A stretch of DNA of 64,000 nt from an uncultured virus (IMG/VR IMGVR_UViG_3300008120_000033) (Duplodnaviria > Heunggongvirae > Uroviricota > Caudoviricetes). The stretch lies in the IMG/VR virus record IMGVR_UViG_3300008120_000033, one strand, 5' to 3'. Below the pieces are notes generated by a model. The model did no database searches. It was not told the DNA's origin and saw only the letters and a program-made list of their open reading frames with translations. Of the stretch, positions 7,947 through 44,772 are shown in pieces (positions within the stretch are counted from its first letter, which is position 1; each line of letters begins with the position of its first letter). The position numbers and the translations under genes are program-made.

Positions 7947-10900
7947 ATGCCAGGTGAGGTTTTTGAATACAAGACAACTGCGCTAGGCACTGCCGAGGGC
8001 AAGGCCGACTCAGTTAACCTCAATGAGGCGCAGGGTATTGTCGAGTGTTTCGTTGCTGGCATCGGAAACAAGGACTCAGTTGGTGACATCGTTGCCACTG
8101 GTGCTTTTACAAAGAGCTTGATGCGTAGAAAACCACGTGTTGTATGGGGCCATAACTGGAATGACCCGATTGGTAAAGTTCTAGAGATTTACGAAGTTCC
8201 TCCCACCGATAATCGCTTGCCAATGAAGATGAAAATGGCTGGAATTGGTGGACTTTTTGCTCGCGTCCAGTTCAATCTTCAGTCCGAGAAGGGCCGGGAA
8301 GCCTTTGCAAATGTTGCCTTTTTTGGCGAGGAGCAAGAGTGGTCAATTGGTTACAAGACGCTACGCGCTCAGTATGACCAGAAATCTCAGGCAAATGTCA
8401 TCTTTGAGCTTGAACTATACGAAGTCTCCCCCGTTCTGCATGGTGCAAACCAGCTAACTGGAACAATCTCAGTTAAGTCAGATGAAAAGGGCGGAATGAT
8501 GACCCCATCACCGATGATGATGATGGAAGAAGACGAGACAGACGAAATCCAAAAGCAGCTATCGATGGTTATCGGTTCAAAGGTCATGATTGATGACGTT
8601 GCTGATGACATGATTACCTTCTCGCGTAGGGAAGACGAAGGAAAAGTGGGCAAGTACAAGTGCCACTACAGCCGTGGACCTGCCGGATTTATGTTTGGCC
8701 CACCACAGCGTGTTCCTATGGCTCCAAAGCCAATGCCAATGATGCCAATGGCTTCACCTGGAATGCCGTCAGTCCCAGAAAGAATTATGCGTCCTTCGCA
8801 GATGCCGGGAATCCCTGTTGCAATCAAGCCAGGCGAGGCTGGGATGCAAATAGTTCCGCTTCCGCCAGTTGATTACGAGGACTCAGGTAAAAAGCCTCGT
8901 CCGCAGTTCGACCCGAACAATATCGACTCAGAAGAGGCTGACCTCCGCGATTCTCTTCTTAAGATAGTTAAGCGCTATGGCAAGTTTAATGAAGACGCTG
9001 ATGGCGTTTGGGCTGGGTACACATCGGCCGCAGAAAATGATGTCAAGAACATCGGCGTCAAGTGCGCCAACTGCGTATTTTTCAAGGGTGGGAACTCTTG
9101 CCAGATAATCGACCTCGACATTGAATCTGAAGGTAAGTGCAGATTTGCAGTCATTCCTAAGGGTGTAGTCAAGGGTGATGTTGTCATCAAGAAGTCTTAC
9201 GAATACCAGACAGAAGCAAATGAAGAGGATTACCTTGAGGACCTTGAGGTTAAGTATCCAGGCGAACTAGCCGTAGCTGCTCTAAGAGGAATTATTGGGC
9301 GTAAGCGCAAGAAGAATCGTAAATACAAGAGCCTCGCTGACTTCGGTCGCGAGGGCGATGACATGAATGGCGCATACTGCATTCCGGTAATGCCGCAGTA
9401 TGCGTTCCGTGTAAAGCAGGCTCTCGACCCAATTTTTGATTACCACTATGCCGACGCTTATGTGGATACGGATGGAATTGTTATCACTTCGGGGGCCAGC
9501 TTTGAGCTCATCGACGCAATTGATACCGCGCTTGATAATTTAAAAAAAAAATCCTTAAATGATGGTGGCATAGAAGAAAAGGCTATTGGCTACCGCCTAG
9601 GCAGGGCAATTGGTAGCCGAATGGTTGACCGACCAAATCTTGGTGGCGGTCGCTCTCGTGGAAGATTCTTCACCAGCTCTGGTGCTCAGGACTTTGACCC
9701 ATTCACCGCAAGAGACGTTGACCTTGATGGAATTGTTGGTGAGGGCCTATTCATGCGAGGCACACCCCTTGCGCAGGCCGACCCAACCCCAGACGGTCCT
9801 GGCTCAATACGCAACCCAAAGCCATCCCCCGAGCAGCTCAAGAAGCCAGGCGCACCTGGCGCGCCAGTATCAAAGCCAGCAACAGGACTTTCGAGTGGAA
9901 AGCTCTATGAGGTTCCACGTGTGGATGACCCAGATGTTGCGTCGTTTGACAAAATGGCCATGGCTGAAGAGCAGAGAGAACAGCTACAGGGTGTTCTTGA
10001 TGGGGCAAGTGACCCAGACCAAATAAAGAGACTGCGTAAGGCAATCAACGAACTCGACAAATACATGAATCGTGTCGAGAAGATGTCAGAGCGCGAAATG
10101 CGTCAGCAGGATGCTGGAGACGTAACCAAACTCTCAAGCGGTTACCAGCGCTTCCTCAGCACCCCAGACAATAAGCGTAGCGATTTTGACAAGGTTAAGT
10201 ATCAGGGCCCACTCAACAAGTTCAAAGAAGGTGAAAGACTTTCCTCTGGAAAGGTTCTTGACTCCGACAATGTAACCCCAGAAGAGCAAAAGCAAATTCT
10301 GGATGATGTTTATGCCAAGATGACAGAGCAGATTATTACTGCTCTTGAAGAAATTGCCAAGAATCCAGGCAATGCGAGATGGGAAATCCCGTGGCGCCAA
10401 CTGGAAATCATGGCGAGAAACGCAACTGGCCAGAAGCGTGTTTATCAGGGAACAAACCAGCTGATGCTGACACTAATCAGCAGCGCTAGGGGCTACAAGA
10501 CGAATCGCTGGGCCGGAGCTGGTCAGTGGAAAAAGATTGGCGGCAAAATAAGCAAGGAGGCCATGGAAAAGCGTGGCGTCCAGATTCTTGCTCCGAACAA
10601 AACAGAGACAGCCATACTCGATAGGGATGGAAATGTAGTTGGCAGCTATCGCGGCTTCCACACAACCACAGTCTGGAACGTCGCAGACGTTGAGGGTCTC
10701 CCACCAGAAATGTATGAATTAGATGATGTTCTTCAGTTGTCACCAGAGCAGAGACTCCAGGACCTGGAAGATGTAATCAAAGAAATTGCTCCAGCATGGA
10801 AGGAAGTCAAGGGCAATAGGGCTTTCTATAGCCCAATGGCTGACGAAATCACAATGCCGCAGTTTGAGCAGTTCAAGGACCCATTGAACTTCTACTCAAC

Positions 10901-13900
10901 GCTATTCCACGAGACCGTTCACTGGACATCACACCCATCAAGAATGAACAGAAAACTTGGCAAACAGTTTGGTGATGCTGATTATGCATTCGAAGAACTT
11001 ATTGCCGAGATTGGTTCGGCATTTGCTCTTGGCGCAATGGGTGTTGAAGCTCCAGTGAGAAAAGACCACGCACCGTACTTGGCTTCATGGCTCCAGGCTC
11101 TACGTAGCCGTCCAGAGGCATTGAAAGACGCAATTACTCAAGCTCAGCAGGCTGTTGACTTCCTGATGAATCGTTCGGCAACCATGCGCAAGCGTGCTGG
11201 TATTCCGGATGGCGAGCGCAAGGGCAAGGACGAGGCAACCGCTGAAGTCCCAATGATTGTTGGATTTGAGGATTCACCAAAGATTCCGACAATTGGTGGC
11301 GTGCGTGGAACATTTGGCGACGAAGACATTGAGGACATAGTTCCTCCAGCTCCAGCAGAAAAGCCAAAGAGAACGAGGAAGGGCTCAAAGGCCTCCGGCG
11401 AGGCTTCAACCGAGGCCCTGTCTAGCGGCGCAATGATGAGCAACCTCAATACCGTTGATGAAGACATTATCGGCGGCGGCTATATCCGTCGTGAGGGTCG
11501 CGACGGGTTAGCTAAGGACGTATCTGGACGCTTGTCCAGTGGTGCATCGCGTGGTTCAGTCCAGCATAGGAGCGGTGACGAAGCTCGTGCCGTAAAACGC
11601 TCACCAGGAACGGCACATTTCGGAAGCCTATATGGATTCTCTTATGAGCCAACAGAGCAGCAGAAAGACATCATCGATACTGGTCTTGCTTTAATGTTTG
11701 GCGAGCAAAAAGGCATCATGACTGTTTCTGCTGGTGCCGGCTCAGGGAAAACAACAACCCTCAAGGCATTGATGGCCGCAGCTGAACGCGAGTTTGATAT
11801 CACGCGATTCATTAATCGACCGGAAGCCCTAAAGGAAAAACTGGATTTCATCTCCGAGAAGTACAGCACCGATGATGACAAGTTTGACCTTTCCTCAATG
11901 TCGGAAGAGGACAGGGATACAAAACTTTCTGAACTTAGAGACAAATTTAAGTCACCAACGGCGTACTACGTTGTTTTCAACAAGAAGAATGAAGAAGAGG
12001 CTGCTGCTGAATTCAGCGACAACACTGGTGTATCAACACTAAACAGGCTGTCTTGGTGGTCATTGTTGCTCGGTCAGGGTGACGAAAAGTATGGCAAGAA
12101 GTTCCGCGACAAGGTAAAAATTTCCACCCAGGATAGAGGGACATTTGCCAGAAGAGACAAAGACGGAAAACTTCAAACAATCAAGTTCACAAAAGTTGAT
12201 GGAACAGAGGGTGAGACGGTTGGGTACGACCCGGGCTGGAGAGACCTTGGTTATTTGAAGCTATCTGACTCAAACGGCTGGATTAAAGCACTCAAGCTCA
12301 CCGATAGAGAAGAGTTCTCTGCTGGCAAGGGTGCCGGAATGCCAACCCCAATAGCGGGAGTAAATCTAACAGTTAGAGACTATGCAGACATTCTTAACAA
12401 GGCACTCAAGGCATTCGCAAACAGTGCTGACGAGAAAATCGGCCCACAGCACTTCAAGAGAGCAGACATCAACAAGGGCAGAGCATCTGATTCAATTGTT
12501 GACACTGAATGGCCTTCAATTCCAGACCAGTGGTTGAAAGACGCCAATGATGGTTGGAACATGGTTACCGACCCGGACAGCATCGTCCTTCCAGACCAAG
12601 GGCAGACAGACAAACTCTGGGCGATGACCGACCCAGACCTGAGAAGCGACCCTGGCTTGATTGGTCATGCCACAGGAAAAGACCTAGAGGCAAACGTTCA
12701 GGTTCCAAAGGAAACAAAAGTTGGGGACATTCTCCCTGACGGACGTGTGGTTATCTCTGTAAAGACAGGCCAGAAAGGCAAGAACTTCCAGGCCACGGTC
12801 GCGCGGAGATACGCAACTAAGGATAACCCGCTGTCAATGTTCATGATTGACGAAGCTCAAGATATGAACCCAGTAATGGAGCAGGTGTTAAATAAGAACA
12901 GAGACAATCTCTCTATTCTACTTGTTGGCGACAAGAGGCAAGCAGTTTATGCGTTCCGTGGTGCTAAAGACATTCTTTCCTCACTAAACGGCGACTATGA
13001 CCTCCCATTGAATGAGTCGTTCCGTTATGGACCAACTGTTGCTTGGTTGGCAAACCTGATTCAGTCACAGGGCAATATTGACGATTCTGAATTGGGAATA
13101 GAAGACAGATTCCACCACGTTGCCGGTTTGGCTGTTGATGTAATCAACAACGACTTCGACATGGATGGCCTTTCCCCAGAAAGAGCCCGCGAAGCCTTAG
13201 TAAAGATTGAGTCAAAGTACAAGAGCGACAGAATCAGAATTGCCCAAAAAGGCATTCGTGATGATTTCGATATGACAAGCATGACTGTTGACCAGAGAAG
13301 AGAAAAGCTCAAAGCAGCAGACAAGAAGTACAAGACAAAGCTTGCATCTTTGTCTGATGATGAAATTGTTTCAGGTATTGAAATCAACAAGGCTCTCTCC
13401 AAGGAGCTCCGAAAAGTAGAAGATAGTTACGTTGCTCTTGCCGATATGGACGAGGCAGCAAGAAGCAAGGAGCTTGCGTCACTAAAGGATGTTCTTTCAA
13501 AAGAAGCAGCTGGTGAGTTTGTTGCCGACATGAAGGACGCTGACGCAATCCTTACGCGCGATAATGCAACAATTATTTATGAAGCATTGCAGTTCATCCA
13601 AAACTTCCAGCCGAGATTCACCAGAAACGGACAGGAACTCCCTCCCGTTGTGATGATTCCAGCGACAAAACACAGAGAAATGAAAGCATTCTTTGAGCAC
13701 TTGTCGTTCGTAATGGATACACCGGTAGATAAGCAGATAGAGCTGACAAAGAAGGGGTTGCGCCCGAAAGCGTCTTCATGGATTGGTGATGTTTGGGATG
13801 CTGGCGAAATAAAGCGCAGGGCTCAACAAGAGCAGTATGCACAGCTCAAGTCAATGTACAAGCTTGTTACTCGCGGCAATAAAAACCTCGGAATCCCACC

Positions 13901-16850
13901 ACGCAGGGCATGGGAATACCGAAACATGTTCGCTAATGGCGTAACGCCAGGAATCAAGGCGCCAGTCATTGTTCCAGAGAGAAAGATGCTCAATCTTTCC
14001 AAGCTCAAGGACGTAAATGTTGATGACCTAAAGACCATATCTGCACAGCGCGGAACGGGTTTCACCTCAACGTCAACAGCAAGTCGTGCCAGAAGATTTG
14101 AGGTAATTCCAGACACAACCGGTAAAGGAAAGAGCAAGGTTCAGTGGCACCTCCAGCTCGCGGATGTGAACGGAAAGCGTGAGGGCGAATGGACGGGGGC
14201 CATTGAGTTATTTGACTGGGGCATTGATAGCGGTGGTGAATACACCGATACCAAGACTGGAAAAGTCGTAAAAGCGCCACAGGGTGTCTACTTCAGAGAC
14301 ATGATGAGAATCCTAGAGGATAGTGATTACTACGGTGGAAAAGTCCAATTCAAGAAGAACGGTCTCCGAAACAAGGAAGGTTCTGGAAAAGAGTTTGGAG
14401 ACACTGTTGTTATCAAGGGCGATACCGACGAAGAAACTGCTTTTATTCTCAACGACATAGTAAGCCGCATGAGGACTTCAGCAAAAACGCCAAATGCTGA
14501 CGTTGAAATAACAACCGCGCAGCTATCCAAGGGTAGAGAGTGGGATAGGGTCCGCGTTGCTTCTGACTTCCGTAATCCTCCAGACCTCGACATAGACCCA
14601 GAAACTGGAAAACCAGTTGAGAGTCGCTCCAGAAGAGAGGAACTCAACATTGTTTATGTTGCTCTAACTAGAGCAAAGAGAGCAATCGACCCGGGCAAGG
14701 CAATATACGACCTTTACCTCTCTGACACTGTGTCGGCAAGACAAAGGGAGGCAATCGACAAGGCTATTGAGGACGGCAGAATGCCCGACTATCTCAATAA
14801 GCCGGAAGGCCTGTTTGACCCATACTCTGGGGAAATAAATGCACCAACACCAACAATCGAAGACGACGACGATGAGCCTGGCGACTACGAAGTTGGTGGT
14901 GGCGATGATGGCAAGTCAATTGACGACATAATCAAAGAAAAAGAAGAGGAAAAAGAAGACGAAGACGCCAGCATCGACGGAATCGAAGACATCGGTGACG
15001 AGGACGCGTCCAATAGTCCAGACATGGACCAGTTCGTTGACTTCCTTTCCTCTGGTCGCTCAGGTCGCGGACGCAGAAACCGCAGACTAAATCGTTCCCG
15101 TCAAACCCCATGGTCCGACGAAGACAGGCAAAGATTTGCTGACCGTGACAGGCTGAGGGCAAATCGTCGCCCTGGCAAGCGGAATGATGGTCCGTCGCCA
15201 GAAGAGTTCTTCTCTAGCGGTCGTACCGATGTGGAGCTAGAAGGAAGATTTGGTCGCAGACTGCGCCAGGGCGGAGCTCAGCGCGCACCAAGGAATGCAA
15301 GACCAAGCACACAAGGAATTGCAGGTCTGAGGTTGTCTGGAAACCCAGAAACAAACTCTAAAGCTAGACGCGAACTCGATTATTCAATGCGCGTATGGGA
15401 CGGATTCAAGAGAACCGGCATAGCCCTTGACGTGAATAGTGATGATTCTGGAACTGATGCAAGACAGAGACAGATTCGCGAAGCGATGAACAACGTTTCA
15501 CAGAGAATGGCAGACAGACCACAAATTACTGTTGGTAGCGTTTCGTCAAACAACCCTAACCAGAACCCAACAGCCTCAACATGGATGCTCTCCACGGAAA
15601 AACTGAAGGATACGATAAGAATTCCAACGGAATACTCTGTCCAGACCGACCCAGGAACCGGAAGAAAAGACATTACTTGGACCCAATCGCGTCCACTAAG
15701 CAATGATGAGCTGGCATCCCTGCTGAACCTTGACAAGCCAAATGCGGCAAAACTTTCGGACCCCGATGCCGGAATTAACCACGATGCGGTACGCATGCTT
15801 GTTGCCGAACTTGGAAAACAGCCAGAGTTTGCTGGATGGAGGCTTTTTGCCCCTGTCACAAGAGCAGACGAAGACTTTGCTGAAATGAACGTAATGGAAC
15901 GATTTGCGGAAAATCTTGGCAGGGCCAACATGCGTGACCGATTCATAATCGAAACATTTGGCAAGGACGCATTCCCACACTGGTTTGACGAGGAAGAAAA
16001 TAACCCAATCTCCCCAGAGGAATACGATTCACTTGGTGAGGTGAGCAGGGTTTCACAATTCCGTGCTAGCGGCCGATTCGATAAAGATAGCGCCACCAGG
16101 GGTGACTCACCAGTTGAGGAAATGCTCATGGAGGAGTCAATTGATGAGGCAGAACTTCCTGACATACAGGAGCCAGATGTTTCTGCGGAGGAGCTAAGGG
16201 CTGACAAGACTGCGCGCAAGGACTTTGAACTTGACGCTCTTCTCAAGTATCTGGGTATCCCAGAAAAGGGATGGCAACAGAGAATGCGCGAAAGACTGCA
16301 GCAGTCGTTCGGCATGGATGATGTTGGTCTTGGCGCACAGAGTGACTGGAAGAAAAACGGAGTTCCAATCGCGTATATCAACCAGATGATAAAGGCTGGT
16401 CTCATTCCAGACGCCAGTTCTGTTTGGCGAGATGGAGACTCCGGTTCAAAACTGGATTCAGAACTCAGCAACGCGAAACATGCTGTTTATGAGGCACTTA
16501 ATGAATTTATTGACAAGAGTTTTCCGAATTCGCCGCAAAACAGCACAAAAACGCGCAACTACATAACAAACAGCACAGATATGGCCCTATATCTGTCGGA
16601 GTCAGCAAAGAGAAAAGGTTCCGTATTCAGCCCAAGAAAGGGCGATGAACCAAGATTCAGCAGCAACGAGCTACAACAGATTGTCAACAGATTCAATGAA
16701 GCATTTGGAACGAATCACACCATTGAAGACATCTTCAGTAGAGAGCAGCTAGAGACAGCACGCAGAAGAATTGAAGAGGATGGCGAGACACTCTCTGGAA
16801 AAAAACGAGAGAGAAGAAAGGTTAAGCCAGACAATTTCGCCAACGATTAA
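7947..16850 (+). CDS. 2967-aa polyvalent protein: HK97-type prohead protease + Cys4 (HiPIP-like) module + ArdC-like ssDNA-binding/zincin + UvrD-like SF1 helicase + unknown modules
   Basis: DSVGDIVATGAF, WGHNWNDPIG, WSIGY, LYEVSPVLHGAN (protease); CANC..C..C at 9063-9140; W.IPW..Y.G.N..L, HETVHWT (10908), YAFEELIAE; AGAGSGKTT (11730), DEAQD (12849), VGDKRQAVYAFRG, SFRYG, KGREW, YVALTRAK. Confidence 0.88.
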   Translation: MPGEVFEYKTTALGTAEGKADSVNLNEAQGIVECFVAGIGNKDSVGDIVATGAFTKSLMRRKPRVVWGHNWNDPIGKVLEIYEVPPTDNRLPMKMKMAGIGGLFARVQFNLQSEKGREAFANVAFFGEEQEWSIGYKTLRAQYDQKSQANVIFELELYEVSPVLHGANQLTGTISVKSDEKGGMMTPSPMMMMEEDETDEIQKQLSMVIGSKVMIDDVADDMITFSRREDEGKVGKYKCHYSRGPAGFMFGPPQRVPMAPKPMPMMPMASPGMPSVPERIMRPSQMPGIPVAIKPGEAGMQIVPLPPVDYEDSGKKPRPQFDPNNIDSEEADLRDSLLKIVKRYGKFNEDADGVWAGYTSAAENDVKNIGVKCANCVFFKGGNSCQIIDLDIESEGKCRFAVIPKGVVKGDVVIKKSYEYQTEANEEDYLEDLEVKYPGELAVAALRGIIGRKRKKNRKYKSLADFGREGDDMNGAYCIPVMPQYAFRVKQALDPIFDYHYADAYVDTDGIVITSGASFELIDAIDTALDNLKKKSLNDGGIEEKAIGYRLGRAIGSRMVDRPNLGGGRSRGRFFTSSGAQDFDPFTARDVDLDGIVGEGLFMRGTPLAQADPTPDGPGSIRNPKPSPEQLKKPGAPGAPVSKPATGLSSGKLYEVPRVDDPDVASFDKMAMAEEQREQLQGVLDGASDPDQIKRLRKAINELDKYMNRVEKMSEREMRQQDAGDVTKLSSGYQRFLSTPDNKRSDFDKVKYQGPLNKFKEGERLSSGKVLDSDNVTPEEQKQILDDVYAKMTEQIITALEEIAKNPGNARWEIPWRQLEIMARNATGQKRVYQGTNQLMLTLISSARGYKTNRWAGAGQWKKIGGKISKEAMEKRGVQILAPNKTETAILDRDGNVVGSYRGFHTTTVWNVADVEGLPPEMYELDDVLQLSPEQRLQDLEDVIKEIAPAWKEVKGNRAFYSPMADEITMPQFEQFKDPLNFYSTLFHETVHWTSHPSRMNRKLGKQFGDADYAFEELIAEIGSAFALGAMGVEAPVRKDHAPYLASWLQALRSRPEALKDAITQAQQAVDFLMNRSATMRKRAGIPDGERKGKDEATAEVPMIVGFEDSPKIPTIGGVRGTFGDEDIEDIVPPAPAEKPKRTRKGSKASGEASTEALSSGAMMSNLNTVDEDIIGGGYIRREGRDGLAKDVSGRLSSGASRGSVQHRSGDEARAVKRSPGTAHFGSLYGFSYEPTEQQKDIIDTGLALMFGEQKGIMTVSAGAGSGKTTTLKALMAAAEREFDITRFINRPEALKEKLDFISEKYSTDDDKFDLSSMSEEDRDTKLSELRDKFKSPTAYYVVFNKKNEEEAAAEFSDNTGVSTLNRLSWWSLLLGQGDEKYGKKFRDKVKISTQDRGTFARRDKDGKLQTIKFTKVDGTEGETVGYDPGWRDLGYLKLSDSNGWIKALKLTDREEFSAGKGAGMPTPIAGVNLTVRDYADILNKALKAFANSADEKIGPQHFKRADINKGRASDSIVDTEWPSIPDQWLKDANDGWNMVTDPDSIVLPDQGQTDKLWAMTDPDLRSDPGLIGHATGKDLEANVQVPKETKVGDILPDGRVVISVKTGQKGKNFQATVARRYATKDNPLSMFMIDEAQDMNPVMEQVLNKNRDNLSILLVGDKRQAVYAFRGAKDILSSLNGDYDLPLNESFRYGPTVAWLANLIQSQGNIDDSELGIEDRFHHVAGLAVDVINNDFDMDGLSPERAREALVKIESKYKSDRIRIAQKGIRDDFDMTSMTVDQRREKLKAADKKYKTKLASLSDDEIVSGIEINKALSKELRKVEDSYVALADMDEAARSKELASLKDVLSKEAAGEFVADMKDADAILTRDNATIIYEALQFIQNFQPRFTRNGQELPPVVMIPATKHREMKAFFEHLSFVMDTPVDKQIELTKKGLRPKASSWIGDVWDAGEIKRRAQQEQYAQLKSMYKLVTRGNKNLGIPPRRAWEYRNMFANGVTPGIKAPVIVPERKMLNLSKLKDVNVDDLKTISAQRGTGFTSTSTASRARRFEVIPDTTGKGKSKVQWHLQLADVNGKREGEWTGAIELFDWGIDSGGEYTDTKTGKVVKAPQGVYFRDMMRILEDSDYYGGKVQFKKNGLRNKEGSGKEFGDTVVIKGDTDEETAFILNDIVSRMRTSAKTPNADVEITTAQLSKGREWDRVRVASDFRNPPDLDIDPETGKPVESRSRREELNIVYVALTRAKRAIDPGKAIYDLYLSDTVSARQREAIDKAIEDGRMPDYLNKPEGLFDPYSGEINAPTPTIEDDDDEPGDYEVGGGDDGKSIDDIIKEKEEEKEDEDASIDGIEDIGDEDASNSPDMDQFVDFLSSGRSGRGRRNRRLNRSRQTPWSDEDRQRFADRDRLRANRRPGKRNDGPSPEEFFSSGRTDVELEGRFGRRLRQGGAQRAPRNARPSTQGIAGLRLSGNPETNSKARRELDYSMRVWDGFKRTGIALDVNSDDSGTDARQRQIREAMNNVSQRMADRPQITVGSVSSNNPNQNPTASTWMLSTEKLKDTIRIPTEYSVQTDPGTGRKDITWTQSRPLSNDELASLLNLDKPNAAKLSDPDAGINHDAVRMLVAELGKQPEFAGWRLFAPVTRADEDFAEMNVMERFAENLGRANMRDRFIIETFGKDAFPHWFDEEENNPISPEEYDSLGEVSRVSQFRASGRFDKDSATRGDSPVEEMLMEESIDEAELPDIQEPDVSAEELRADKTARKDFELDALLKYLGIPEKGWQQRMRERLQQSFGMDDVGLGAQSDWKKNGVPIAYINQMIKAGLIPDASSVWRDGDSGSKLDSELSNAKHAVYEALNEFIDKSFPNSPQNSTKTRNYITNSTDMALYLSESAKRKGSVFSPRKGDEPRFSSNELQQIVNRFNEAFGTNHTIEDIFSREQLETARRRIEEDGETLSGKKRERRKVKPDNFAND
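9539..9551 (+). other. Candidate slippery site T-TTA-AAA-AAA-AAA (A10)
   Basis: X-XXY-YYZ heptamer in phase with the ORF; longest A-run noticed in window; both shifted frames stop within a few codons. Confidence 0.5.
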
Positions 16851-18559: not shown

Positions 18560-21500
18560 ATGTCGGGTGAACCGGTAAAGCACAGGGTAATAACGTCTGG
18601 ACGTCTAGTATCTCCAGTTGCCTGCTGTAGGGACTTCGATGCTAGAGCGCTTCGTTTCAAGCAATCAATCAACGGAAGCGTCTACTCAGGCAGGCTTCAA
18701 GCAGATATAGCCGTAAAGGCGCTTGGTTGGGGCATCTCTCGCAAGCAAGACGAGGGAAACACTGACAATAAAAAGCGTGAATTCACCGGGGAATCAATGC
18801 CCGGTGTTGAAAAAAACGCATACGGGTATAGGTGGAAACCAGAAGCCAGATGGGAACCGGGCTCAAAGCTTGTTCTATCGCCAACAATTGAGAGCATTCG
18901 CGGAATGGATATCGAGCCTAATTTTGGCTGGATTCCAGAAAAGGAACGCGAAGTTGATTCGTTTGACAAGCTGCTGAATAAGCTGCGAAATAAACCACAC
19001 ATAAAAATATCTAAGTTTGATGTAAACCCTAAGACTGACGAAGTTGACACATCTTCTGAAAAAATTGTCGACCCATTTGCAATGTCAACAGGCATGACAA
19101 TGGAGGAACGCAGAAGAAGGCTCAACAAGGGCAAAAACGTAGAAGAAAAATCATTAGGACCCAATCTTGGTGCGCGAGTTCCTGGCGGTTCATTGCTAGC
19201 AAGGGCAGCTGCAGCAGTTGGAATACTTAGAGATGAAAATAATAAGTTTAGGTGTCCTCCAGGAACGCCAGCAGCTAACCAGTTTACGGACGCCATGGGC
19301 TCAAACTGCTTTGGGTTCAGTGCTAGTAGATTCGCAAGATTTGCTGCTCGCCAGGCCGCAGAACTCTCCAACCAAGGAGAAATGCAGGGACTTAGAAACA
19401 GTGCACGAAATGTACTTGACTTTGTTTACAACGGAAGATGGTTTCGTGACTTAGCTGATGCTGACCCAGCAAGAATTGGTCGCAGTCCATGGTATGACGC
19501 AGCAACTGGCGAAAGAATAGAAACACCTGACTGGCGTGACGTTGATGGCCCAGAAAATCTCCGCGTAACAACTAATGGGATGATTAACGCGCAAGATGAA
19601 ATTGCGCGAGCTGATGCTGAAGTTCTCAGTCTACTGGATGACCTTGGTGTCGACATAAGTGATGAGGCGAGAGCCACGAATGAAGACCTTGGTCAAGCAT
19701 TTGACACACTGCGACAGATGGCTAATAATGGCGACCCACGCGGATGGGATGTAAACCTTGTCAACGCAAACGGAGTAGACCAGCCAAGACTGACACCACA
19801 ACAAGTCGAGCAGTTTGTCACAGCCCGCCTACAGGCCGTTCAGGGATGGACTTCACTCTCAAAAGAAGAACAAGACCTCATGGTCAAGGCTGATACTGCA
19901 AGATATTACGAAACCGAAAGAGCATTCCTTGAGTCCCTGCTAGTTCAGTTCAAGAGAAACCCATCTGCAGCAAAGTTTCTTGGAACAATCATGTACGACT
20001 CGGACTCGAACCACGAGGCCGGAACATCACTAATGCGCGATGCTGCTCAAATTATCGACATGACTGACCCTGTTACTGGGAAAACAAGAAAAGTCAAAAT
20101 ACCCGGGGAAATGCGTGGGGTAATCGACTTCAACATGGACATGATTATGAGCAACCAGGAAACCATGCTTCCAAACATGGGTGCTGGCCAGCGCCTGTCA
20201 ATAGCTGCCATTGGCGGAAGAACAGACGCCGAATCTCAGATGGCTCTTTCACATTTTATGCTAAACGCTGACCTTGCGGCTCGCCACATGGCTGGACTCG
20301 TAGATGGTCCAAAATCATTCACGAGACACATAGGGATACACGAATTTGCCCACTTGGTCCAGGCTCAGGGATTCATGGAGGAGATTGACCGCAGAGCAAA
20401 AGCCGGAATGCTTGAGGTTCCGCAGTTCTCTAAGCGCGGCGACTATCTAGGGCAGAAAAAGATAAATAGCCTTTACGACTTAAGCGCTGGCGACATCATG
20501 AACATGATGACACAAACAGCTGACGGGATAAACCTTAAAGAACTTGGTGATGTGATGAGCCGCCTAGAGGGTGTTGCTCAGTTCTCTGGCGCATATCCAA
20601 GAGAATATGAAAAGGGAAGCGAAATATGGGCGCTCGAAGCCCTTGCTGAACTTTATGCGCTGAGGGAACAAAAACTTATAAGCGGCGATGACGTCGACTC
20701 GGTTCTGGAGTTCATGGATGACATCATGGCAAAGAGAGCTGAAACTTCGGCAGCAATCGCAAGCGCAACATATGACCTGGATGAGGTTGATTCTCCAGAC
20801 ATTGATTCACCAACAGCAGACGTTCTTCCTGGAATAACGCCAGAAGAACTAGACGCAATGGCAGAAGAAGCGCTAGTCCGTAGGGTTGCCGACAGGAGAG
20901 AAACTCTAAAAGCTTTCAGAAGTGACTATTCGGGACTCACTCAGGAGGAGATGTTTGATGTTGCTACAGAAATAGCGACAGATTACACTATCGCTAAAGA
21001 AAGTCTGGATGAAATAGAAAAGTCGGAAATCCCATCTGGCTTAACACCGGAAGAAACAGATGCTGCAACAAGAGCCAGACAAGAGCTTCTTGATATAGCC
21101 ATAGAAGAGGCTCAATTCCATGAGAAGAAGTACGACGATGCACGTCGTGAATGGAAAAAGAAGTATGGAATTGGTGCTCGTTCGGAAAACGCAAGATTTG
21201 ACGCAGAAGTAGGGTCACTAAGGGAGTCTCGCGGCCTACTTAGTCCATCGGAAGCTGCTAAAAATGCAAGAGCAAGACAGCTTGATGCTATTTCTGAAGA
21301 CATAACACAAATCGATGATAAAAAAGCCATCAGAAAAATGGCCGACACCCAAGTTCTGATGAAGGCAAATTCTGATGATGTCGACAAATCAGTAGAACTA
21401 GCTGAAGAATTCGACACCATGAAGAATGCCATGATTGAAAAACTTAGGGCTGGTGGAGATAAACGCAGCAGGTCGAGAATTAGTAAAGAAATCGATGAAA

Positions 21501-24500: not shown

Positions 24501-24772
24501 TCAGGATGTATGGAGGCACAGACTCTGTTGGCCTCGATGCCGACCAGAGAATAAGTGGAATAGCTGCCCAGCTTGACGTTGAGAATAAAATGCACTCACA
24601 CTCAGATAATGCACACTTTGAAAAAACAAGAAAACATGATGGTATGTCATTCCCTGTTACTCCTGGAATATTTGCTAACTTAAGTCGAAATGCTCTTCTG
24701 CGTTTAATGCATCAAGATAGATGGTCTGGGGCAAACAACTCACTATCTGAAACAACAAGAAGTGTTGTTTAG
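18560..24772 (+). CDS. 2070-aa polyvalent protein: zincin (HEFAH), degenerate ADP-ribosyltransferase-like module, C-terminal domain paralogous to 41140 protein
   Basis: GIHEFAHLVQ (20339)...EALAELY; VISLKEGDKGIF..GESRFILPPGSLRVV; three LSSG motifs. Confidence 0.72.
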   Translation: MSGEPVKHRVITSGRLVSPVACCRDFDARALRFKQSINGSVYSGRLQADIAVKALGWGISRKQDEGNTDNKKREFTGESMPGVEKNAYGYRWKPEARWEPGSKLVLSPTIESIRGMDIEPNFGWIPEKEREVDSFDKLLNKLRNKPHIKISKFDVNPKTDEVDTSSEKIVDPFAMSTGMTMEERRRRLNKGKNVEEKSLGPNLGARVPGGSLLARAAAAVGILRDENNKFRCPPGTPAANQFTDAMGSNCFGFSASRFARFAARQAAELSNQGEMQGLRNSARNVLDFVYNGRWFRDLADADPARIGRSPWYDAATGERIETPDWRDVDGPENLRVTTNGMINAQDEIARADAEVLSLLDDLGVDISDEARATNEDLGQAFDTLRQMANNGDPRGWDVNLVNANGVDQPRLTPQQVEQFVTARLQAVQGWTSLSKEEQDLMVKADTARYYETERAFLESLLVQFKRNPSAAKFLGTIMYDSDSNHEAGTSLMRDAAQIIDMTDPVTGKTRKVKIPGEMRGVIDFNMDMIMSNQETMLPNMGAGQRLSIAAIGGRTDAESQMALSHFMLNADLAARHMAGLVDGPKSFTRHIGIHEFAHLVQAQGFMEEIDRRAKAGMLEVPQFSKRGDYLGQKKINSLYDLSAGDIMNMMTQTADGINLKELGDVMSRLEGVAQFSGAYPREYEKGSEIWALEALAELYALREQKLISGDDVDSVLEFMDDIMAKRAETSAAIASATYDLDEVDSPDIDSPTADVLPGITPEELDAMAEEALVRRVADRRETLKAFRSDYSGLTQEEMFDVATEIATDYTIAKESLDEIEKSEIPSGLTPEETDAATRARQELLDIAIEEAQFHEKKYDDARREWKKKYGIGARSENARFDAEVGSLRESRGLLSPSEAAKNARARQLDAISEDITQIDDKKAIRKMADTQVLMKANSDDVDKSVELAEEFDTMKNAMIEKLRAGGDKRSRSRISKEIDEKIEALNSPKPKPTRKFKSKADADSFVKSRRASQSRRLTPRQREAIRQIGTGEDVDISNVLDPQKQVSAGRAINRRNARLARLGLEVDENSSSEAPLDRQVQNVLIPTMEAIDATSITEPFEIEAIVEVESGKVSGRSVGKDVQIDSLVTGRLMPKGRRPTKLTRQQESDAPEGKKKKRVVISLKEGDKGIFSSPGEDGESRFILPPGSLRVVSRGDDGTIYMEVSSQKNAVEAAESLRDSLSNGTDDAIWRKGASNRVGKVVNEYVTARRESRDIDSPRNDSDKQIAETNSSINEQVVDAGSSFGEGIDDVDLQGASESLSSGRSIYGPKQTRAQRTESRRSKISSNAKEIRNILSGKGSKEFPELSKENIDPRVAELIMNLPDEELHSLIEETAYRMHSGLDRRAHVRMRESEVDEMLITGTVRSPLASSSDDSPVASRRIERILRRNSSGTREDGFRRAMQSESLSSGAVKKGIGERLKGRAMNQIAERMGLDDEEKEVMELVVDTAAAMRFGPQAALTKLGMELARRGSRDLAEFVVEKLKEDDRINDEQAKMILKRMNRVAPEGLPEPLKDAAVSAARGARRMVDTPENRERIATARESAGRRARRLRDASAERVREMRDRITGVEAINDAGETGPPIGLPPVPVLRGEPRVTLSSGRVERTLKPGSISPQTSKIKSSRASISLGENWRDQIEVYEIGGKRVAFGVPNEQSWESDISDVEVLPINPFVISGLDETSDEGRELAIKWTLAGIGLNEEGNDSKTEASSILYAATRGDTDAQKRLDDLAEAGQKTVDASRKNIAQLRQETIDREAAAREKTLSELRRALPDASEEEIQRRARPSRSNGFSGLSVDDLYLVHETTYEPQYDSDGNLVIRPTGDYPMLDENGQPLLDDNGRPWDTYRGTIHFSINHRVSGHQQRETPEASNVIMIPLKDVIAANPGALDNLYGVDTYLTPPPGEPLKLPASAVRTLKLEKGETDPWGKVHTELESMGMSPDVRMYGGTDSVGLDADQRISGIAAQLDVENKMHSHSDNAHFEKTRKHDGMSFPVTPGIFANLSRNALLRLMHQDRWSGANNSLSETTRSVV

Positions 24773-31028: not shown

Positions 31029-32390
31029 ATGTCGGAAGACAAAGCCCGCATCTCAGAGCTCCAGTCAGCTCTAAGAACCAAAATGGACGAGAATAAGGCA
31101 ATTGCCGACTCGTTCCGCGTTGAGGACGGCACAGTAGTCGTCTCCTCAGACCAGAAGACAGCGTTCGACAAGAACATGCGCGACATCAAAGAAATCAAGT
31201 CGCTTCTTTCGGACCTTCAGACCATCGAAAACGTTGACAGCTGGTCAAATCAGCCAGCAGGTGACTCGGTTTCTTCAGCCTATGCTGCTGCTGCCGCTGA
31301 CCTCACCCAGTTGACATCACGTGAAATCAAGAGCATCGGCCAGATGTTCCTTGAGTCAGCTGAGTTCAAGGCCCTCAACGGTGGACGTAATGGCGCAAAC
31401 ATGGCCGCTCCATGGCAGGTGAAGGCTTCCCTCACCAGCTTCTCAGGTGGTTACAACGTCAAGGACGTCTTCTCAGGTATGCCAAGCGGTGACATCACCA
31501 CTGGCCTTGGTTCAGTTCAGCGTGACGCAATCGTTACTCCTCCAATGCGTACCAAGCGCGTTCGTGACCTTTTCCCGGTCCGTCGCACAAACGCAGCGGT
31601 TATCGAGTACTTCCGTCAGCTCGGGTTCACCACACTTGAGGCTGGTCATGGCGTAAACAACGCTGCGACAGTTGCAGAGCGTGGAACCGGCGCAGCGAGC
31701 GCGACCTTCGGCATCAAGCCACAGTCGTCATTCGCTTTCGTTGGTGAGCAGGCTCCAGTGCGCACACTCGCACACTGGGAAGCAGCACACCGCAACGTTC
31801 TTGCCGATGAGCCACAGCTGCGCTCAATCATCGACAACGAGCTAATGTACGGTCTGCGTCTCCTCGAAGACAACCAGATTCTGAACGGTGACGGAACCGG
31901 CGAGAACCTTCTCGGCGTGCTCAACACACCAAACATTCAGGAATACGCATGGTCAGATGGAGAAACCGCTCCAGTTGCTGACACCAAGGCTGACGCAATT
32001 CGTCGTGCTGCTACCCTCTCGTTCCTGGCTTACTACGAGCCAAGCGGTGTTGTTCTACACCCGAACGACTGGGAAGACATCGAACTGACGAAGGACGAGC
32101 AGGGTCAGTACCTAATCGCAGTTTCGGTTGCGATGGGTGGTGAGCCAAAGGTCTGGCGCATGCCGCTGGTGGACACCCCAGCCATCGATGAGGGCACTGC
32201 TCTTGTTGGTGCCTTCGGTACCGGCGCTCAGTTGTACGACCGCGAGGAAGCCAGCATCCGTATTTCGGAACAGCACTCAGACTTCTTCGTACGCAACGCC
32301 ATCGTCATCTTGGCCGAGCAGCGCCTAGCCCTAGCGGTGAAGCGTCCAGAGGCCTTCGTGAAGGTGTCATTCGACAGCGCACCTGTCTGA
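31029..32390 (+). CDS. Major capsid protein, HK97 fold, with N-terminal scaffold (delta) domain
   Basis: Coiled-coil N-terminus, EIKSIGQMF, QILNGDGTGENLLG, LHPNDW, FVRNAIVILAEQRLALAVKRPEAF; SD AAGAGG; strongly biased codons. Confidence 0.95.
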   Translation: MSEDKARISELQSALRTKMDENKAIADSFRVEDGTVVVSSDQKTAFDKNMRDIKEIKSLLSDLQTIENVDSWSNQPAGDSVSSAYAAAAADLTQLTSREIKSIGQMFLESAEFKALNGGRNGANMAAPWQVKASLTSFSGGYNVKDVFSGMPSGDITTGLGSVQRDAIVTPPMRTKRVRDLFPVRRTNAAVIEYFRQLGFTTLEAGHGVNNAATVAERGTGAASATFGIKPQSSFAFVGEQAPVRTLAHWEAAHRNVLADEPQLRSIIDNELMYGLRLLEDNQILNGDGTGENLLGVLNTPNIQEYAWSDGETAPVADTKADAIRRAATLSFLAYYEPSGVVLHPNDWEDIELTKDEQGQYLIAVSVAMGGEPKVWRMPLVDTPAIDEGTALVGAFGTGAQLYDREEASIRISEQHSDFFVRNAIVILAEQRLALAVKRPEAFVKVSFDSAPV

Positions 32391-37450: not shown

Positions 37451-37458
37451 AAAAATAC

Positions 37459-41086: not shown

Positions 41087-41139
41087 CACTAAATTACCTA
41101 AATTTATTGAGCACCAAAGCAATGGTATTATTGCTTTGA

Positions 41140-44100
41140 ATGTCTGAGAATAAAGAATTCCCTATTCCCTTTGATGAGTCACGTCGTGGAAAGCGTGCAG
41201 GTCATGAGGAGAAGTCAATTGGCCGTCGACTCCTTGGTCGCGCAATAGATAGACCATCAATTGGAAGAAATAGGGGTCGAAACAACAATGTTGACCTACC
41301 CACTGGGGGCAAGCCAGGAAAACGCCGCCCAACGGGAACAACGAGAGACATCGACGGCGATGGCTGGGTTGATGAAGGAACCACGAACCCCAGATGGATG
41401 GGGGTCCCGAGCGGGAATGGGAACAGCCCTGGGGTACCTAATAGGAATAGAAAAAATCCCAACGTAAAACCAAACGCCCCTAAGTCAAGCCGCGAAATAG
41501 AGTCAATATTTCTTTCCAGTGGGAAACTTCGCGAGCGTCCAGTAGTCGAAGAGATAGACAGAAACCTGAAAGATGGCTCACTTAGCACCTCTCCCAACAA
41601 GGGAATTATTGGTATGCGTGATGGCGGATTTTCGGTCGCAAAAAAGCCAAGTGAGTCTGATTCATTTCTACGTCAGGAATACCGTGAATGGTCAATCGGT
41701 GACGAGAAGGTTATCTTCGGCATACCAGAACGCCCTGCATCAATGGCCGATGACCCCGGTTACTACGACGGTGATGCAAAAATCGTACCCATGAACCCTT
41801 ATGTTATTTCAGGATTGCCAGCAGACTCCAAAGAGGGGCAAGAAATAGCAAAAAAGTGGGCTTATGCGAAATCGTCAGCAGAAGTTGCCGGCGACGAAGA
41901 ACCTACATACATAGAGGCACTTCTATATGCTGGGTCGCGTGGTGACTCCGAGGCAATGAGCATATTCGATGAATTTGCCAAAGTGGGAAAAGCTGCTGCA
42001 GATAAGGCAAAAGAAGAAAGAGCTGCGACATATCTTCAGTCATACAACAGAGAAGATGTTCAGCAGGACCTAAAAAGAGCCGGTCTCGACAACCTCTCGA
42101 TTGATGATTTATATCTAGTTCATGAAACCAAATATGAACCGGAATTCGACGAAGATGGCAACTTGATGCTTAGGCCTCTTGGTGATTGGGTTCTCAAGAA
42201 TCTAGATGGCCAGGATGCAACATACGATAGGGAAACAATTCATTTTGCAATGAACCACCTTGCCGGCGGCCATCTTATGAGGCAGAGAAACGACGAGGGT
42301 GAAAACAGGTACATCATAGTATCCAAGCTTTCAGACGTTCTTGAAATGAACCCCGGCTCCATTGATGCCTTAAATCCTGTAGATGTTGGGCTCGTTCCAC
42401 CACCCAATGAACCATTGAGGCTTCCAAAGAAATCCATAAAAGTTTTAGAAAATCCAGATACGGAAGACGTCGACTCCCTTGTGTCACAAACTCTCAGGGA
42501 AATGGGTGCAAAACACATATTCACTGCGGGTGAGTACGGGAATAAAACCGAAACAAGTGCAATTCTAAAGATTGCCTCAGAACTAGGCGCAAATGTTGAG
42601 CTTCACGCAAATACACCGAGTGGTTCAATTGAGCAAATTGACAAGGGCACAAATTTATCTGGCTCTTTCATTGGTGCCAACTGGCTTGGTGAAATGAGCG
42701 AAAACTCAATAGCGCGACTCGGCAATAATTCAAAATGGCACGGATTAAAGGAAACCGGCTACTCGATGCGCCGAGACGAATATGAAGATTTGCTAAATTC
42801 AAATTCTGGGAAGCTCGGTTCTGACACTGGTAGAAGTGAGGTTCTTTTTAGCGGCAAAGCTCCACAGTATCCACGTCCACCGGCATACGGTCCACTTATT
42901 GGCGGAGCGGAAGAATATTTCGATGGAGTTAAAGACTGGCAAGAATTCGCAGAAAAGTACCGTGGCCGAGATGTTGTATGGATTGACTATGAAACAACTG
43001 GGTTAGTTTTTGATGAGTTTGGCAAAAGCTCGGCAAATGGCAAACCGGTTCAGCTTGGTGCCGTCAAAGTAAGAGATGGCAAAATAGTTGACCGATTTAA
43101 TGTATTTATAAATCCAGGCGAACCACTTGGCGAATGGTCGAGACAGTATCTCCGTGGTCCAGGTGGTGAGAACCTTACTGACGAATGGCTATCTACTCAG
43201 ATGTCTTTATCTGACGCTCATAGACAATTTGCTGAGTTTGCTGGAGCTGGTGCAATACTTGGCCTCCAGAATGCAGCTTTCGATAAAAACGTTCTCGAAG
43301 ATGAACTCAAGGAAAACGGCATAGATTGGCAACCAACTGGGTACATCGACACCATGGACATGTCCGCCATGACCTTGCCAAAGTGGACGCCAGAAAACCA
43401 AGATGGGCCATCAATGGTCGGCCGCGACGGAGAAAGACGTGCATCCAGCAGTCTTAAGGCCATAACGGAATACCTGGATGTCGAGCTTGGTGACAAGCAC
43501 CACACAGCCGACGCTGATGCTGAAGCGGCAGCCATGGTTATGGAGAACCTCATTGCTAGGGCCATAGAAAATGGCTGGACAGCTGACGCAATAAAGCCAG
43601 ATACGCGACGCGAGTTTGTGGAGAAGCGTAAAAAAGAATTTGACGAAAAAGTAGCAAAATTTGAAGAAGACAAGAAGTCTTACCTTGACGCGTTAGCCAA
43701 TGAGTCCGATGGAGACAAACTTTCATCTGGGGCAACCAAGACAAAAGCACGTAAATACGGAGATAGCAAACCTGGCGGTGAGGAACGATTTATTAGAAAT
43801 AGTTCAACATGGCTAAAAGGCTTAAGCTCAAAACAGATTGCAGAGCTTGTTGTTCCCGAATCCCATGAACAGTACATAGAAATGCTGCTTGATGATTACT
43901 TCCCTGCCCGAGATGGTGAAAATCCAGGCTTTGTGGATGCATTTAAAAACAACTTGATTGAGTCAATGAAGAGGAGTCCGTGGATTAAGGGCGACTACTC
44001 AGAAGAATCGACTGAAAAGATTAGAGAACTTGTTGAGTCTTCTCTTGAGGCCAGCCCGTCACTGAAGTGGGCATTTGAGAACTTTGGTGCCCCCATGTTT

Positions 44101-44772
44101 GTGATGCTTACGCCAGAAGGTGCATCGCTTTATGAGAATCAGCCAGCGCTAAAGGCTAAAAGAGAACAAATAATGCAGTCTCGTGGTTTAAAAAGTGAGC
44201 CGTTCGTTAGGGGTATACAATTCACTGGCAAAGACCTTATTTCATTCAATAGAAAACTGATTGTTGACCAGATGTCAAATGACCCAGACTTTGAGACATC
44301 CCCATTGATTGCAGATGCCAATCACGTTGTTAGACCGGGAAGGGCAAATATTGACATAGCAGCATCATCTACGCTTTCTCACGAGTATGGCCATTGGCTT
44401 CAGAAAAGAGCACTGCGCGAAAATGAGCGCACGGCGAAATCAGTTACCGGAGTCAAGTACGGCGGAGAACAAGTACCTAGCTCTAGAATGCCACTTGTTA
44501 TAAGAATTGCTGAAATGTATGAAAATGCCGAAGTTGATGAGTTGATTGGCAAAGCTCACAGGGACGGAATGCCCCTAGAGGCGACTCCATCAATACCAAG
44601 AACACTAACAACGTATGCCCACACAAACGGCAGGGAGATGATTGCCGAGGGATTCAGTGCATTCTTTCATCCAAATCCAGATGTCAAGAATCAGGCAATC
44701 AATAAAAAACTGCTAGATGATGTTTATCGAATGCTTGGTCTGGAACCCGGCGAAGCACCGTGGTCGGCTTAG
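41140..44772 (+). CDS. 1210-aa polyvalent protein: unknown domain (paralog of 18560 C-terminus) + DnaQ-like DEDDh exonuclease + zincin
   Basis: WIDYETTG (42985), QNAAFD, IDT, HHTADADA; LSHEYGHW (44380)..EMIAEGF; modules bounded by LSSG/LFSG. Confidence 0.8.
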   Translation: MSENKEFPIPFDESRRGKRAGHEEKSIGRRLLGRAIDRPSIGRNRGRNNNVDLPTGGKPGKRRPTGTTRDIDGDGWVDEGTTNPRWMGVPSGNGNSPGVPNRNRKNPNVKPNAPKSSREIESIFLSSGKLRERPVVEEIDRNLKDGSLSTSPNKGIIGMRDGGFSVAKKPSESDSFLRQEYREWSIGDEKVIFGIPERPASMADDPGYYDGDAKIVPMNPYVISGLPADSKEGQEIAKKWAYAKSSAEVAGDEEPTYIEALLYAGSRGDSEAMSIFDEFAKVGKAAADKAKEERAATYLQSYNREDVQQDLKRAGLDNLSIDDLYLVHETKYEPEFDEDGNLMLRPLGDWVLKNLDGQDATYDRETIHFAMNHLAGGHLMRQRNDEGENRYIIVSKLSDVLEMNPGSIDALNPVDVGLVPPPNEPLRLPKKSIKVLENPDTEDVDSLVSQTLREMGAKHIFTAGEYGNKTETSAILKIASELGANVELHANTPSGSIEQIDKGTNLSGSFIGANWLGEMSENSIARLGNNSKWHGLKETGYSMRRDEYEDLLNSNSGKLGSDTGRSEVLFSGKAPQYPRPPAYGPLIGGAEEYFDGVKDWQEFAEKYRGRDVVWIDYETTGLVFDEFGKSSANGKPVQLGAVKVRDGKIVDRFNVFINPGEPLGEWSRQYLRGPGGENLTDEWLSTQMSLSDAHRQFAEFAGAGAILGLQNAAFDKNVLEDELKENGIDWQPTGYIDTMDMSAMTLPKWTPENQDGPSMVGRDGERRASSSLKAITEYLDVELGDKHHTADADAEAAAMVMENLIARAIENGWTADAIKPDTRREFVEKRKKEFDEKVAKFEEDKKSYLDALANESDGDKLSSGATKTKARKYGDSKPGGEERFIRNSSTWLKGLSSKQIAELVVPESHEQYIEMLLDDYFPARDGENPGFVDAFKNNLIESMKRSPWIKGDYSEESTEKIRELVESSLEASPSLKWAFENFGAPMFVMLTPEGASLYENQPALKAKREQIMQSRGLKSEPFVRGIQFTGKDLISFNRKLIVDQMSNDPDFETSPLIADANHVVRPGRANIDIAASSTLSHEYGHWLQKRALRENERTAKSVTGVKYGGEQVPSSRMPLVIRIAEMYENAEVDELIGKAHRDGMPLEATPSIPRTLTTYAHTNGREMIAEGFSAFFHPNPDVKNQAINKKLLDDVYRMLGLEPGEAPWSA

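Follow-up and report, generated by a model that had tools for sequence, protein, structure and literature searches.

Giant proteins of the window

The subject of this study is a four-residue motif, LSSG, which recurs in three giant proteins of an uncultured tailed virus (IMG/VR record IMGVR_UViG_3300008120_000033, Caudoviricetes). The window, that is the whole stretch of DNA analysed here, comprises 64,000 nucleotides. The three proteins are named A (2967 amino acids (aa), positions 7947..16850), B (2070 aa, 18560..24772) and C (1210 aa, 41140..44772), and all are encoded on the plus strand. An earlier note on this DNA had regarded them as polyproteins which are cut at LSSG to release independent enzymes, or else LSSG as a docking tag for loading or ejection. 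The motif turned out to be enriched, conserved, module-delimiting and placed in linkers, for which cleavage appears to be the best fit. A candidate for the cutting enzyme, a prohead protease at the N-terminus of A, had been overlooked in that note.

From its N-terminus, protein A comprises a Peptidase_S78 domain, a conserved segment, an ArdC-N domain, an MPTase-PolyVal zincin, a UvrD-like helicase and a C-terminal region of no recognised family. The Peptidase_S78 domain (HK97-type prohead protease; aa 28-174, 8028..8468) matches PF04586 with an E-value of 3.7e-10 and 40.6 bits, the curated cut-off being 21, and phrog_80, the head maturation protease, at 2e-24. Gordonia and Brevibacterium phages have stand-alone proteases for capsid maturation that are about 40% identical to it. 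The residues H69 (in WGH) and S133 (in EWSIGY) are invariant in 21 aligned sequences and may be equivalent to the catalytic pair of HK97 gp4. No solved structure was found for the protease domain by sequence search. The portal gene (5756..7843, plus strand; Pfam Phage_portal 2.3e-50, phrog_2662 6.2e-61) lies immediately 5' of A, so with its start at 7947 the protease gene adjoins the portal gene and stands in the head module. ArdC-N (aa 787-873; PF08401, 4.6e-14) and the zincin (aa 953-1062; PF18818, 3.4e-38) together span 10305..11132 and match phrog_7245 at 6.3e-64. They are followed by a helicase region of UvrD/AAA_19/AAA_30 type (aa 1251-2246, 11697..14684; Pfam, and phrog_1967 at 5.6e-35).

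Since S78, ArdC-N, the zincin and the UvrD-type helicase are joined in a single chain, one open reading frame (ORF) of 2967 aa in a phage context, protein A, headed by a phage prohead protease, belongs by its domain content to the polyvalent proteins as Iyer et al. (2017) defined them. The MPTase-PolyVal/ArdC-N pair which is the hallmark of these proteins is present in A and missing from B and C. In all five related records searched there is one S78 locus per genome, which scores above the cut-off and lies within a giant ORF. Among the relatives are the complete genomes G001 (151,107 bp, with direct terminal repeats, 98% of sampled 31-mers common with the window), G002 and G003, and the record G006, which is 88% complete.

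The conserved segment of A (aa 541-647, 9567..9887) is predicted to be disordered and ends at an LSSG. It contains many invariant columns (aa 550-630), and in an AlphaFold2 model of aa 560-1250 (25-row alignment, mean predicted local distance difference test score (pLDDT) 65), in which the ArdC-N/zincin part is folded, the pLDDT is below 50 across most of aa 560-652. The segment resembles the N-terminus of protein C. A541-663 and C21-140 are 38% identical (pairwise BLASTP 5e-10), and the alignment passes through the LSSG. A profile of A aa 530-652 run against all ORFs of G001, G002 and G003 found only A homologs beyond 1e-3, with C at a domain E-value of 0.28. Segments of this type may be a capsid-targeting or protease-docking element. 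The sequences at 9567-9887 in A and at 41200-41511 in C (aa 21-124) share the pattern 'EEK-x-IG-x-RL-GRAI...DRP' and a loop-like stretch 'D-x-D-x-DG-x-V-x-E/D-G', and the same segment forms the N-terminus of C and of its homologs P0002-P0005. A look-alike in B, 'GIGERLKGRAM' (22910-22960, aa 1451-1467), stands directly past the LSSG at aa 1447. A strict regular expression for the element 'IG-x-RL-x-GRA' matched 2 of 13 C, 45 of 120 A and 2 of 48 B homologs and was not used as evidence.

Protein B has a motif-free N-terminal part of about 1300 aa, followed by three LSSG-delimited modules, and has no match in Pfam or PHROG. The N-termini of the B family (in the window 18560-18700, aa 1-45) share the pattern 'ER-V-I-V-S-x-R-L...S-C-C-G-G-F-N-E-K-A'. 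With I-T-S-G-R at aa 11-15, B fits a loosely defined core hydrophobic-x-Ser-small-Arg, which might mark a short propeptide at the N-terminus.

Protein C consists of an N-terminal conserved segment, an LSSG, a domain here called domain Y, an LFSG, a DEDDh exonuclease, a further LSSG and a C-terminus of no recognised family. The exonuclease (RNase_T/DEDDh, aa 613-800, 42976..43539) matches Pfam at 1.4e-13 and phrog_192 at 5.3e-27. All three proteins had been called head-associated, but the gene for C sits amid replication genes, outside the head genes.

Domain Y occurs in both B and C. In B it extends from the LSSG at aa 1638 to aa 2069 (23471..24766), in C from the LSSG at aa 125 to about aa 543-560 (41512..42768, wider border 42819). 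As noticed earlier, the duplicated domain starts at an LSSG in both proteins: B aa 1636-2069 and C aa 123-543 are 30% identical over 461 aa, and the alignment begins at the motif in both. An AlphaFold model of the domain has a pLDDT of 86.8 and a predicted template modelling score (pTM) of 0.88, and its R, H and N residues in 'R-x-T-x-HF-x-LNH' are invariant. A Foldseek search of the PDB had no match at E ≤ 0.001 and the ESM Atlas none that could be used; the best hit of a wide VIA-align search had a Z of 4.0, which is under the tool's noise guidance. ADP-ribosyltransferase folds account for many of the weak VIA-align matches (Z ≤ 4.0): OspC3/CopC, DarT, tRNA 2'-phosphotransferase, and LT-, pertussis- and pierisin-type toxins. 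An ADP-ribosyltransferase fold for domain Y may therefore serve as a lead suggested by these matches, not as an assignment. One relative which carries domain Y, P0184 (4703 aa), contains a GNAT acetyltransferase, an ADP-ribosyltransferase exoenzyme (PF03496), RNase_T and nine LSSG, and therefore one junction motif serves very different enzyme sets.

LSSG sites in the window

All 11 exact copies of LSSG described earlier were recovered at their positions, six in A, three in B and two in C. In A they start at aa 648 (9888..9899), aa 729 (10131..10142), aa 765 (10239..10250, just 5' of ArdC-N), aa 1158 (11418..11429, in a hypervariable linker), aa 1196 (11532..11543, ahead of the helicase) and aa 2367 (15045..15056). 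The copies in B are at aa 1300 (22457..22468), aa 1447 (22898..22909) and aa 1638 (23471, followed by domain Y), those in C at aa 125 (41512, again followed by domain Y) and aa 861 (43720..43731, with LSSG in similar context in P0002 and P0003). The placement at domain borders holds as well: ArdC-N and MPTase lie between sites 765 and 1158, the helicase between 1196 and 2367, and RNase_T between the degenerate LFSG at C aa 569 (42844..42855) and the LSSG at aa 861. K, R or A follows the motif in 10 of the 11 copies, the exception being a Y at 10131. Different codons are used in different copies, which places the conservation at the protein level.

Near-variants had been listed at 9669, 15207 and 42844, and all are present. 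The FSSG within the one at 15207 (A aa 2422, 15210..15221) stands where homologs have a conserved LSSG. The FTSSG at 9669/9672, on the other hand, is probably no site, lying in a conserved stretch where homologs read SIGA.

The composition of the three proteins (6,247 aa) predicts 0.20 copies of LSSG, in agreement with the rough estimate of well under one chance copy. Shuffling the sequences 500 times gave at most 5 copies of any 4-mer, and three LSSG turned up in a single one of the 500 shuffles. The other 51 ORFs of the window (13,075 aa, picked by hand) contain no LSSG, with 0.43 expected, and five further six-frame occurrences all fall within short non-coding frames. The ORF pieces of G001, about 49,100 aa in total, contain 12 LSSG; A, B and C account for 11 of these, and the twelfth is in an ORF piece of 1323 aa. 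The same concentration in the giant proteins holds for G002 and G003.

Conservation and position of the sites

As a global alignment of 121 N-terminal sequences (1300-1500 aa) was too gappy (6375 columns), the sites were aligned in A and 20 close homologs. At four of the six A sites the motif forms a conserved island. The motif identity is 0.84 at site 648 (flanks 0.28/0.42), 0.80 at site 729 (flanks 0.37/0.35), 0.95 at site 765 (flanks 0.29/0.34) and 0.93 at site 1196 (flanks 0.33/0.24). Site 765 is the best conserved one; S767 and G768 are invariant, and its column holds a motif in 87 of the 121 sequences. At site 1196, where six of the 20 homologs have LASG, L1196, S1198 and G1199 are invariant. 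The copies at 11418 and 15045 are lineage-specific, while the FSSG at 15210 is conserved: S2423, S2424 and G2425 are invariant, and column 2422 is a near-invariant Leu. A further stretch, ITSG at A aa 513-516 (9483-9494), reads ITSG, MTSG or MSSG in homologs with S515 and G516 invariant. The region around it is well conserved and probably folded (flank identity 0.72-0.74), and a strict motif stands at this column in 24 of 121 sequences. It could be a site which closes the protease block, or a part of the fold.

Structure prediction placed four of the five modelled A sites in low-confidence linkers, as the polyprotein proposal would have it. The pLDDT is below 50 for all of sites 648 and 1158 and for three of the four residues at 765 (from the second on) and 1196; site 729 lies at the border of a low-confidence loop and a helix. 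The motifs also lie near borders of similarity between homologs more often than chance would have it. Of the ends of BLAST similarity blocks, 18-22% are no farther than 15 aa from a motif, in comparison to 4.5-6.8% of random positions (3-5x). P0002 corresponds to C minus domain Y, deleted from motif to motif, and reads LSSG-KAPRYP where C has LFSG-KAPQYP; modules are thus acquired or dropped as units bounded by motifs.

The motif in homologous proteins

A search with A aa 1-780 revealed 295 proteins at E ≤ 1e-5, of which the best 120 (1951-4759 aa) were used; almost all of these carry S78 in precomputed Pfam lists. Together the 120 proteins contain 1026 LSSG, with 11.0 expected. In 103 of them no 4-mer is more frequent than LSSG, and all 120 have at least three copies of the broad form [LFM][SAG]SG. 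The first motif of the A family stands at a median position of aa 655, which leaves the N-terminal block with the protease free of motifs. The spacing of the motifs has a median of 134 aa, and 20% of the gaps are shorter than 50 aa. In 48 B homologs 145 LSSG were counted against 3.8 expected. Motifs are absent from their first 1260 aa or so, and there are recurrent sites close to aa 1300, 1450 and 2020, so that the positions of the first two copies in B are conserved in its family. LSSG occurs in 7 of 13 C homologs with at most five copies each. For domain Y, 198 representatives were found at E ≤ 0.001 and the best 150 used, of which 146 were new. Among the matches listed, 48 proteins chosen by this domain have at least 1000 aa, and 18 of these contain at least three motifs and 20 none. 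Cultured phages yielded no full-length relative of A, B or C.

A logo from 1045 sites reads [R/K/G/S]-L-S-S-G-[R/K/A]-[R/K]. Position 1 also allows F and then M, position 2 A and then G; hardly any change is seen at positions 3 and 4. The flanks are polar and of disorder type, rich in S, G, R, K, D and E. The wider consensus appears to be [R/K/G/S]-[L/F/M]-[S/A/G]-S-G-[R/K/A]. Some homologs use FSSG only, such as P0038 (A type, three FSSG, no LSSG) and P0174 (B type, four FSSG, no LSSG), which probably come from the same genome because both lie on 154,503-bp contigs. Six more distant protease fusions on viral contigs contain no [LFM][SAG]SG; they have instead one to six copies of G-L-x-S-[STGA], mostly with A or R as x, and are neighbours in a protease-domain tree. 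Six proteins hold a third form, G-F-A-S-[RAST]-[SG], at 49 sites. Common to the clade forms is a Gly or basic residue, a hydrophobic one, any residue and Ser. The core of all clades may thus be described as hydrophobic-x-Ser-small, of which LSSG would be the local form.

Could such a motif arise with no reader at all, as a by-product of low-complexity linker composition or as a remnant of recombination junctions? The composition of the flanks and the module insertions and deletions at motifs would fit this. The enrichment over composition, however, is about 55-fold in the window and about 90-fold in the homologs, no other 4-mer comes near the LSSG count in the shuffles, and the codons vary between copies. 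Moreover, S and G are invariant amid diverging flanks, and distinct forms are fixed per clade. We regard a readerless origin as exceedingly improbable and close to refuted, and are all but sure that the motif functions as a short linear motif.

Proposed cleavage by the fused protease

What reads the motif can be approached from its arrangement. We consider it likely that LSSG is a cleavage site, as one of the two earlier proposals had it. The other, that LSSG stays uncut, would make it a repeated linker motif for docking to a common partner (capsid interior, portal, scaffold, DNA or a host factor), and the intact giants would be loaded and ejected. Enrichment, conservation, linker position and clade forms fit a co-evolving binding partner equally well, and the virion RNA polymerase of N4 is packaged unprocessed according to PMC5512222. 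On the other hand, the motif brackets nearly every module at the short spacing given above, which suits excision better than docking, and whole modules are gained and lost precisely between motifs. The only candidate reader linked to the motif universally is a protease. The hydrophobic-x-small-small shape, too, resembles that of protease sites. Docking is therefore unlikely in our view, though it deserves to be kept in mind.

With somewhat less assurance than for cleavage as such, we favour on balance that LSSG is cut by the fused S78 prohead protease, freeing packaged enzymes. Protein A, headed by the sole recognisable prohead protease and encoded directly after the portal gene, would enter the prohead by the usual route of the protease, taking its enzymes along. 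B and C would be co-packaged, C perhaps targeted via its N-terminal segment resembling A aa 541-647. S78 would then cut the linker motifs, so that ArdC-N/zincin, helicase, exonuclease and other modules separate and are ejected together with the DNA. By analogy, our guess for the scissile bond is after the invariant Ser (L-S-S|G), because the sites of assemblin-fold proteases are of the form hydrophobic-x-Ala|Ser. When the complex of the S78 domain (A aa 1-215) and a 40-aa linker containing LSSG (aa 1178-1217) was predicted without controls, the score was 0.01 and the mark 0.32, which speaks neither for nor against binding.

Another protease might read the motif, namely the MPTase-PolyVal zincin within A or, after ejection, a host protease. 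The zincin is a strong match in A, MPTase is found in four of five related records, and autoprocessing of polyvalent proteins by MPTase was proposed earlier (PMC5512222). Yet 18 of the 120 A homologs lack PF18818 in the precomputed Pfam lists and still keep 5-12 broad motifs each, and G006 has no MPTase match, while its S78 fusion contains a repeated variant of the motif, GLAS, nine times. S78 is present throughout the A family, although that follows from the design of the search. The MPTase-less homologs and G006 therefore favour S78 over the zincin, though their genomes might encode a zincin elsewhere. A host protease would leave unexplained why the forms of the motif track the tree of the phage protease. 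A reader of either kind seems to us quite improbable, more so than docking.

Several observations weigh against cleavage by S78. The portal and capsid proteins of the window and the capsid ORFs of G002 and G003 contain no [LFM][SAG]SG. In T4-like and phiKZ-like systems the consensus also occurs in capsid or portal substrates, and its absence here, unusual for a general prohead-protease site, counts in favour of docking. The Gordonia phages GMA6 and Chidiebere, which have a stand-alone homologous protease (40% identical), show no enrichment of the motif. Two of the six LSSG in A, sites 1158 and 2367, are not conserved in position among the 20 homologs. Since the proteins are interrelated, the homolog counts include inherited sites. 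The absence of MPTase from G006 is insecure at 88% completeness. Protein C is encoded amid replication genes, and its one link to the head is an N-terminal similarity to A which is weak in the profile search (domain E-value 0.28), although pairwise BLAST gives 5e-10. Finally, cleavage, the enzyme, packaging, ejection and the scissile bond are what we infer, whereas enrichment, conservation, linker position, clade forms and the fusion are what we observe.

The following general picture is offered tentatively, as one which we hold to be slightly less likely than not. In a large clade of uncultured actinobacterial phages (about 120-170 kb), a prohead protease may head a polyprotein of 2,000-4,700 aa in which a four-residue code, hydrophobic-S-S-G, marks every junction and its forms co-evolve with the protease. 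The modules between motifs would be packaged, excised in the capsid and injected, and unlinked proteins could join via the motif and an N-terminal targeting segment. Such a system would contain the first defined cleavage consensus of an S78 protease for cargo, and would be a natural and portable design by which proteins are loaded into capsids.

Genome setting

The window encodes a large terminase, a portal, a major capsid protein, a ribonucleotide reductase, a primase and a WhiB-like regulator, all recognised by Pfam and PHROG and typical of a tailed phage. The large terminase gene (Pfam/PHROG) is at 4127-5479 on the minus strand, the gene for the major capsid protein (phrog_10, 2.3e-60; free of LSSG-type motifs) at 31029..32390 on the plus strand. 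The capsid protein is about 50% identical to its counterparts in the Gordonia phages GMA6 and Chidiebere and the Brevibacterium phage Cantare. This similarity, together with the WhiB-like regulator, points to an actinobacterial host.

Two DUF3721 repeats (2.7e-13) are found in the ORF immediately 5' of the capsid gene (30224-30862), and DUF6321 (4.9e-29) in the one immediately 3' of it (32499-33323). A Pfam search at E ≤ 0.1 with the unknown modules and the nearby head-module ORFs gave only DUF3721 and DUF6321 beyond the cut-off. No scaffold protein was recognised in the head-module ORFs by the Pfam scan. The approximately 450 aa of A from the protease domain to the first LSSG may have a scaffold role. 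Two unannotated head-module ORFs contain one MSSG each, 24790-26307 (aa 215, 'QLAMSSGIG') and 26304-26816 (aa 70, 'PRNMSSGSW'); such single copies are at chance level for the broad motif. The commonest 4-mers genome-wide in G001 and G002 are GATG, GPTG, TGAT and ATGP, the leading one with 73-96 copies. The abundance of these 4-mers indicates long collagen-like proteins of G-x-T repeats, probably fibres.

Comparison with known systems

No phage system with this motif was known to the author of the earlier note, and we too found no paper tying LSSG to phage proteins in the open-access papers searched. The COBRA actinophage paper contains neither 'protease' nor 'polyvalent' in its text. The general idea, however, is already in print, as regards both the processing of polyvalent proteins (PMC5512222) and consensus sites of prohead proteases (PMC10052503).

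Should the favoured reading be true, it would provide a specificity rule for HK97-type (S78) prohead proteases on cargo. The mature virion proteome of abundant uncultured actinobacterial phages would become predictable from sequence, and the arrival of anti-restriction and nucleic-acid enzymes in the host at infection would be explained. It would also offer a compact tag-and-cut design by which foreign proteins could be loaded into capsids of laboratory phage systems.

The herpesvirus assemblin cuts at hydrophobic-x-Ala|Ser and has the same fold class as the HK97-type proteases. Its sites resemble the motif in having a hydrophobic residue two before a small P1 and a small P1', which would fit L-S-S|G if the cut follows Ser. 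In contrast, sequence family, host and substrates differ, and the cut register is guessed here. HK97 gp4 is a small stand-alone protein which digests the delta domain of the capsid protein and itself, and we know of no LSSG-type consensus for it. The HK97-type protease is incorporated into the prohead, so that fused cargo could be carried in. Protein A shares with gp4 the S78 family and the place of its gene after the portal gene, but here at least 2,300 aa of cargo follow the protease block.

The closest working counterparts are the site systems of T4-like and phiKZ-like phages (T4 gp21, phiKZ gp175, SPN3US gp245). The site consensus of T4 gp21 is L/I-x-E. Common to these systems and the present one are a phage head protease and a short consensus which recurs in several proteins, with several sites in each. 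The consensus occurs there in internal or ejected head proteins, and N-terminal propeptides may target them to the prohead, whereas C is a putative head protein. Gp245 of SPN3US cuts after A-x-E at 14 sites in nine head proteins, mostly for the removal of N-terminal propeptides (PMC10052503). Here the protease is of S78 (HK97) type and not of gp21 type, the motif is hydrophobic-S-S-G and not x-x-Glu, and the sites part enzyme modules and not mainly propeptides. In addition, the protease is fused to the cargo, and the present system is known from sequence alone.

There is likeness also to the polyvalent proteins. Iyer, Burroughs, Anand, de Souza and Aravind (2017; PMC5512222) proposed that these are processed by assemblin-like peptidases or by a built-in MPTase, the latter acting before packaging, in the head or after injection. 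Protein A is likewise a giant multi-enzyme chain with ArdC-N, an MPTase zincin and a helicase, for which delivery with the DNA and proteolytic release are predicted. Assemblin-like peptidases, which that paper mentions for the processing of virion proteins and for some polyvalent proteins, are always C-terminal according to it, whereas the protease of A is N-terminal. In the passages on this processing S78 is not classified and no cleavage consensus is named, whereas the junction motif described here is defined and variable between clades. The splitting of polyvalent phage proteins had been predicted without being tied to a defined site; the present finding offers for it a precise and testable site consensus, a protease named as the candidate, and natural substrates and site variants in their hundreds. 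New here, beside the known idea of polyvalent processing and the known consensus sites of prohead proteases, are the defined junction motif and the N-terminal fused prohead protease.

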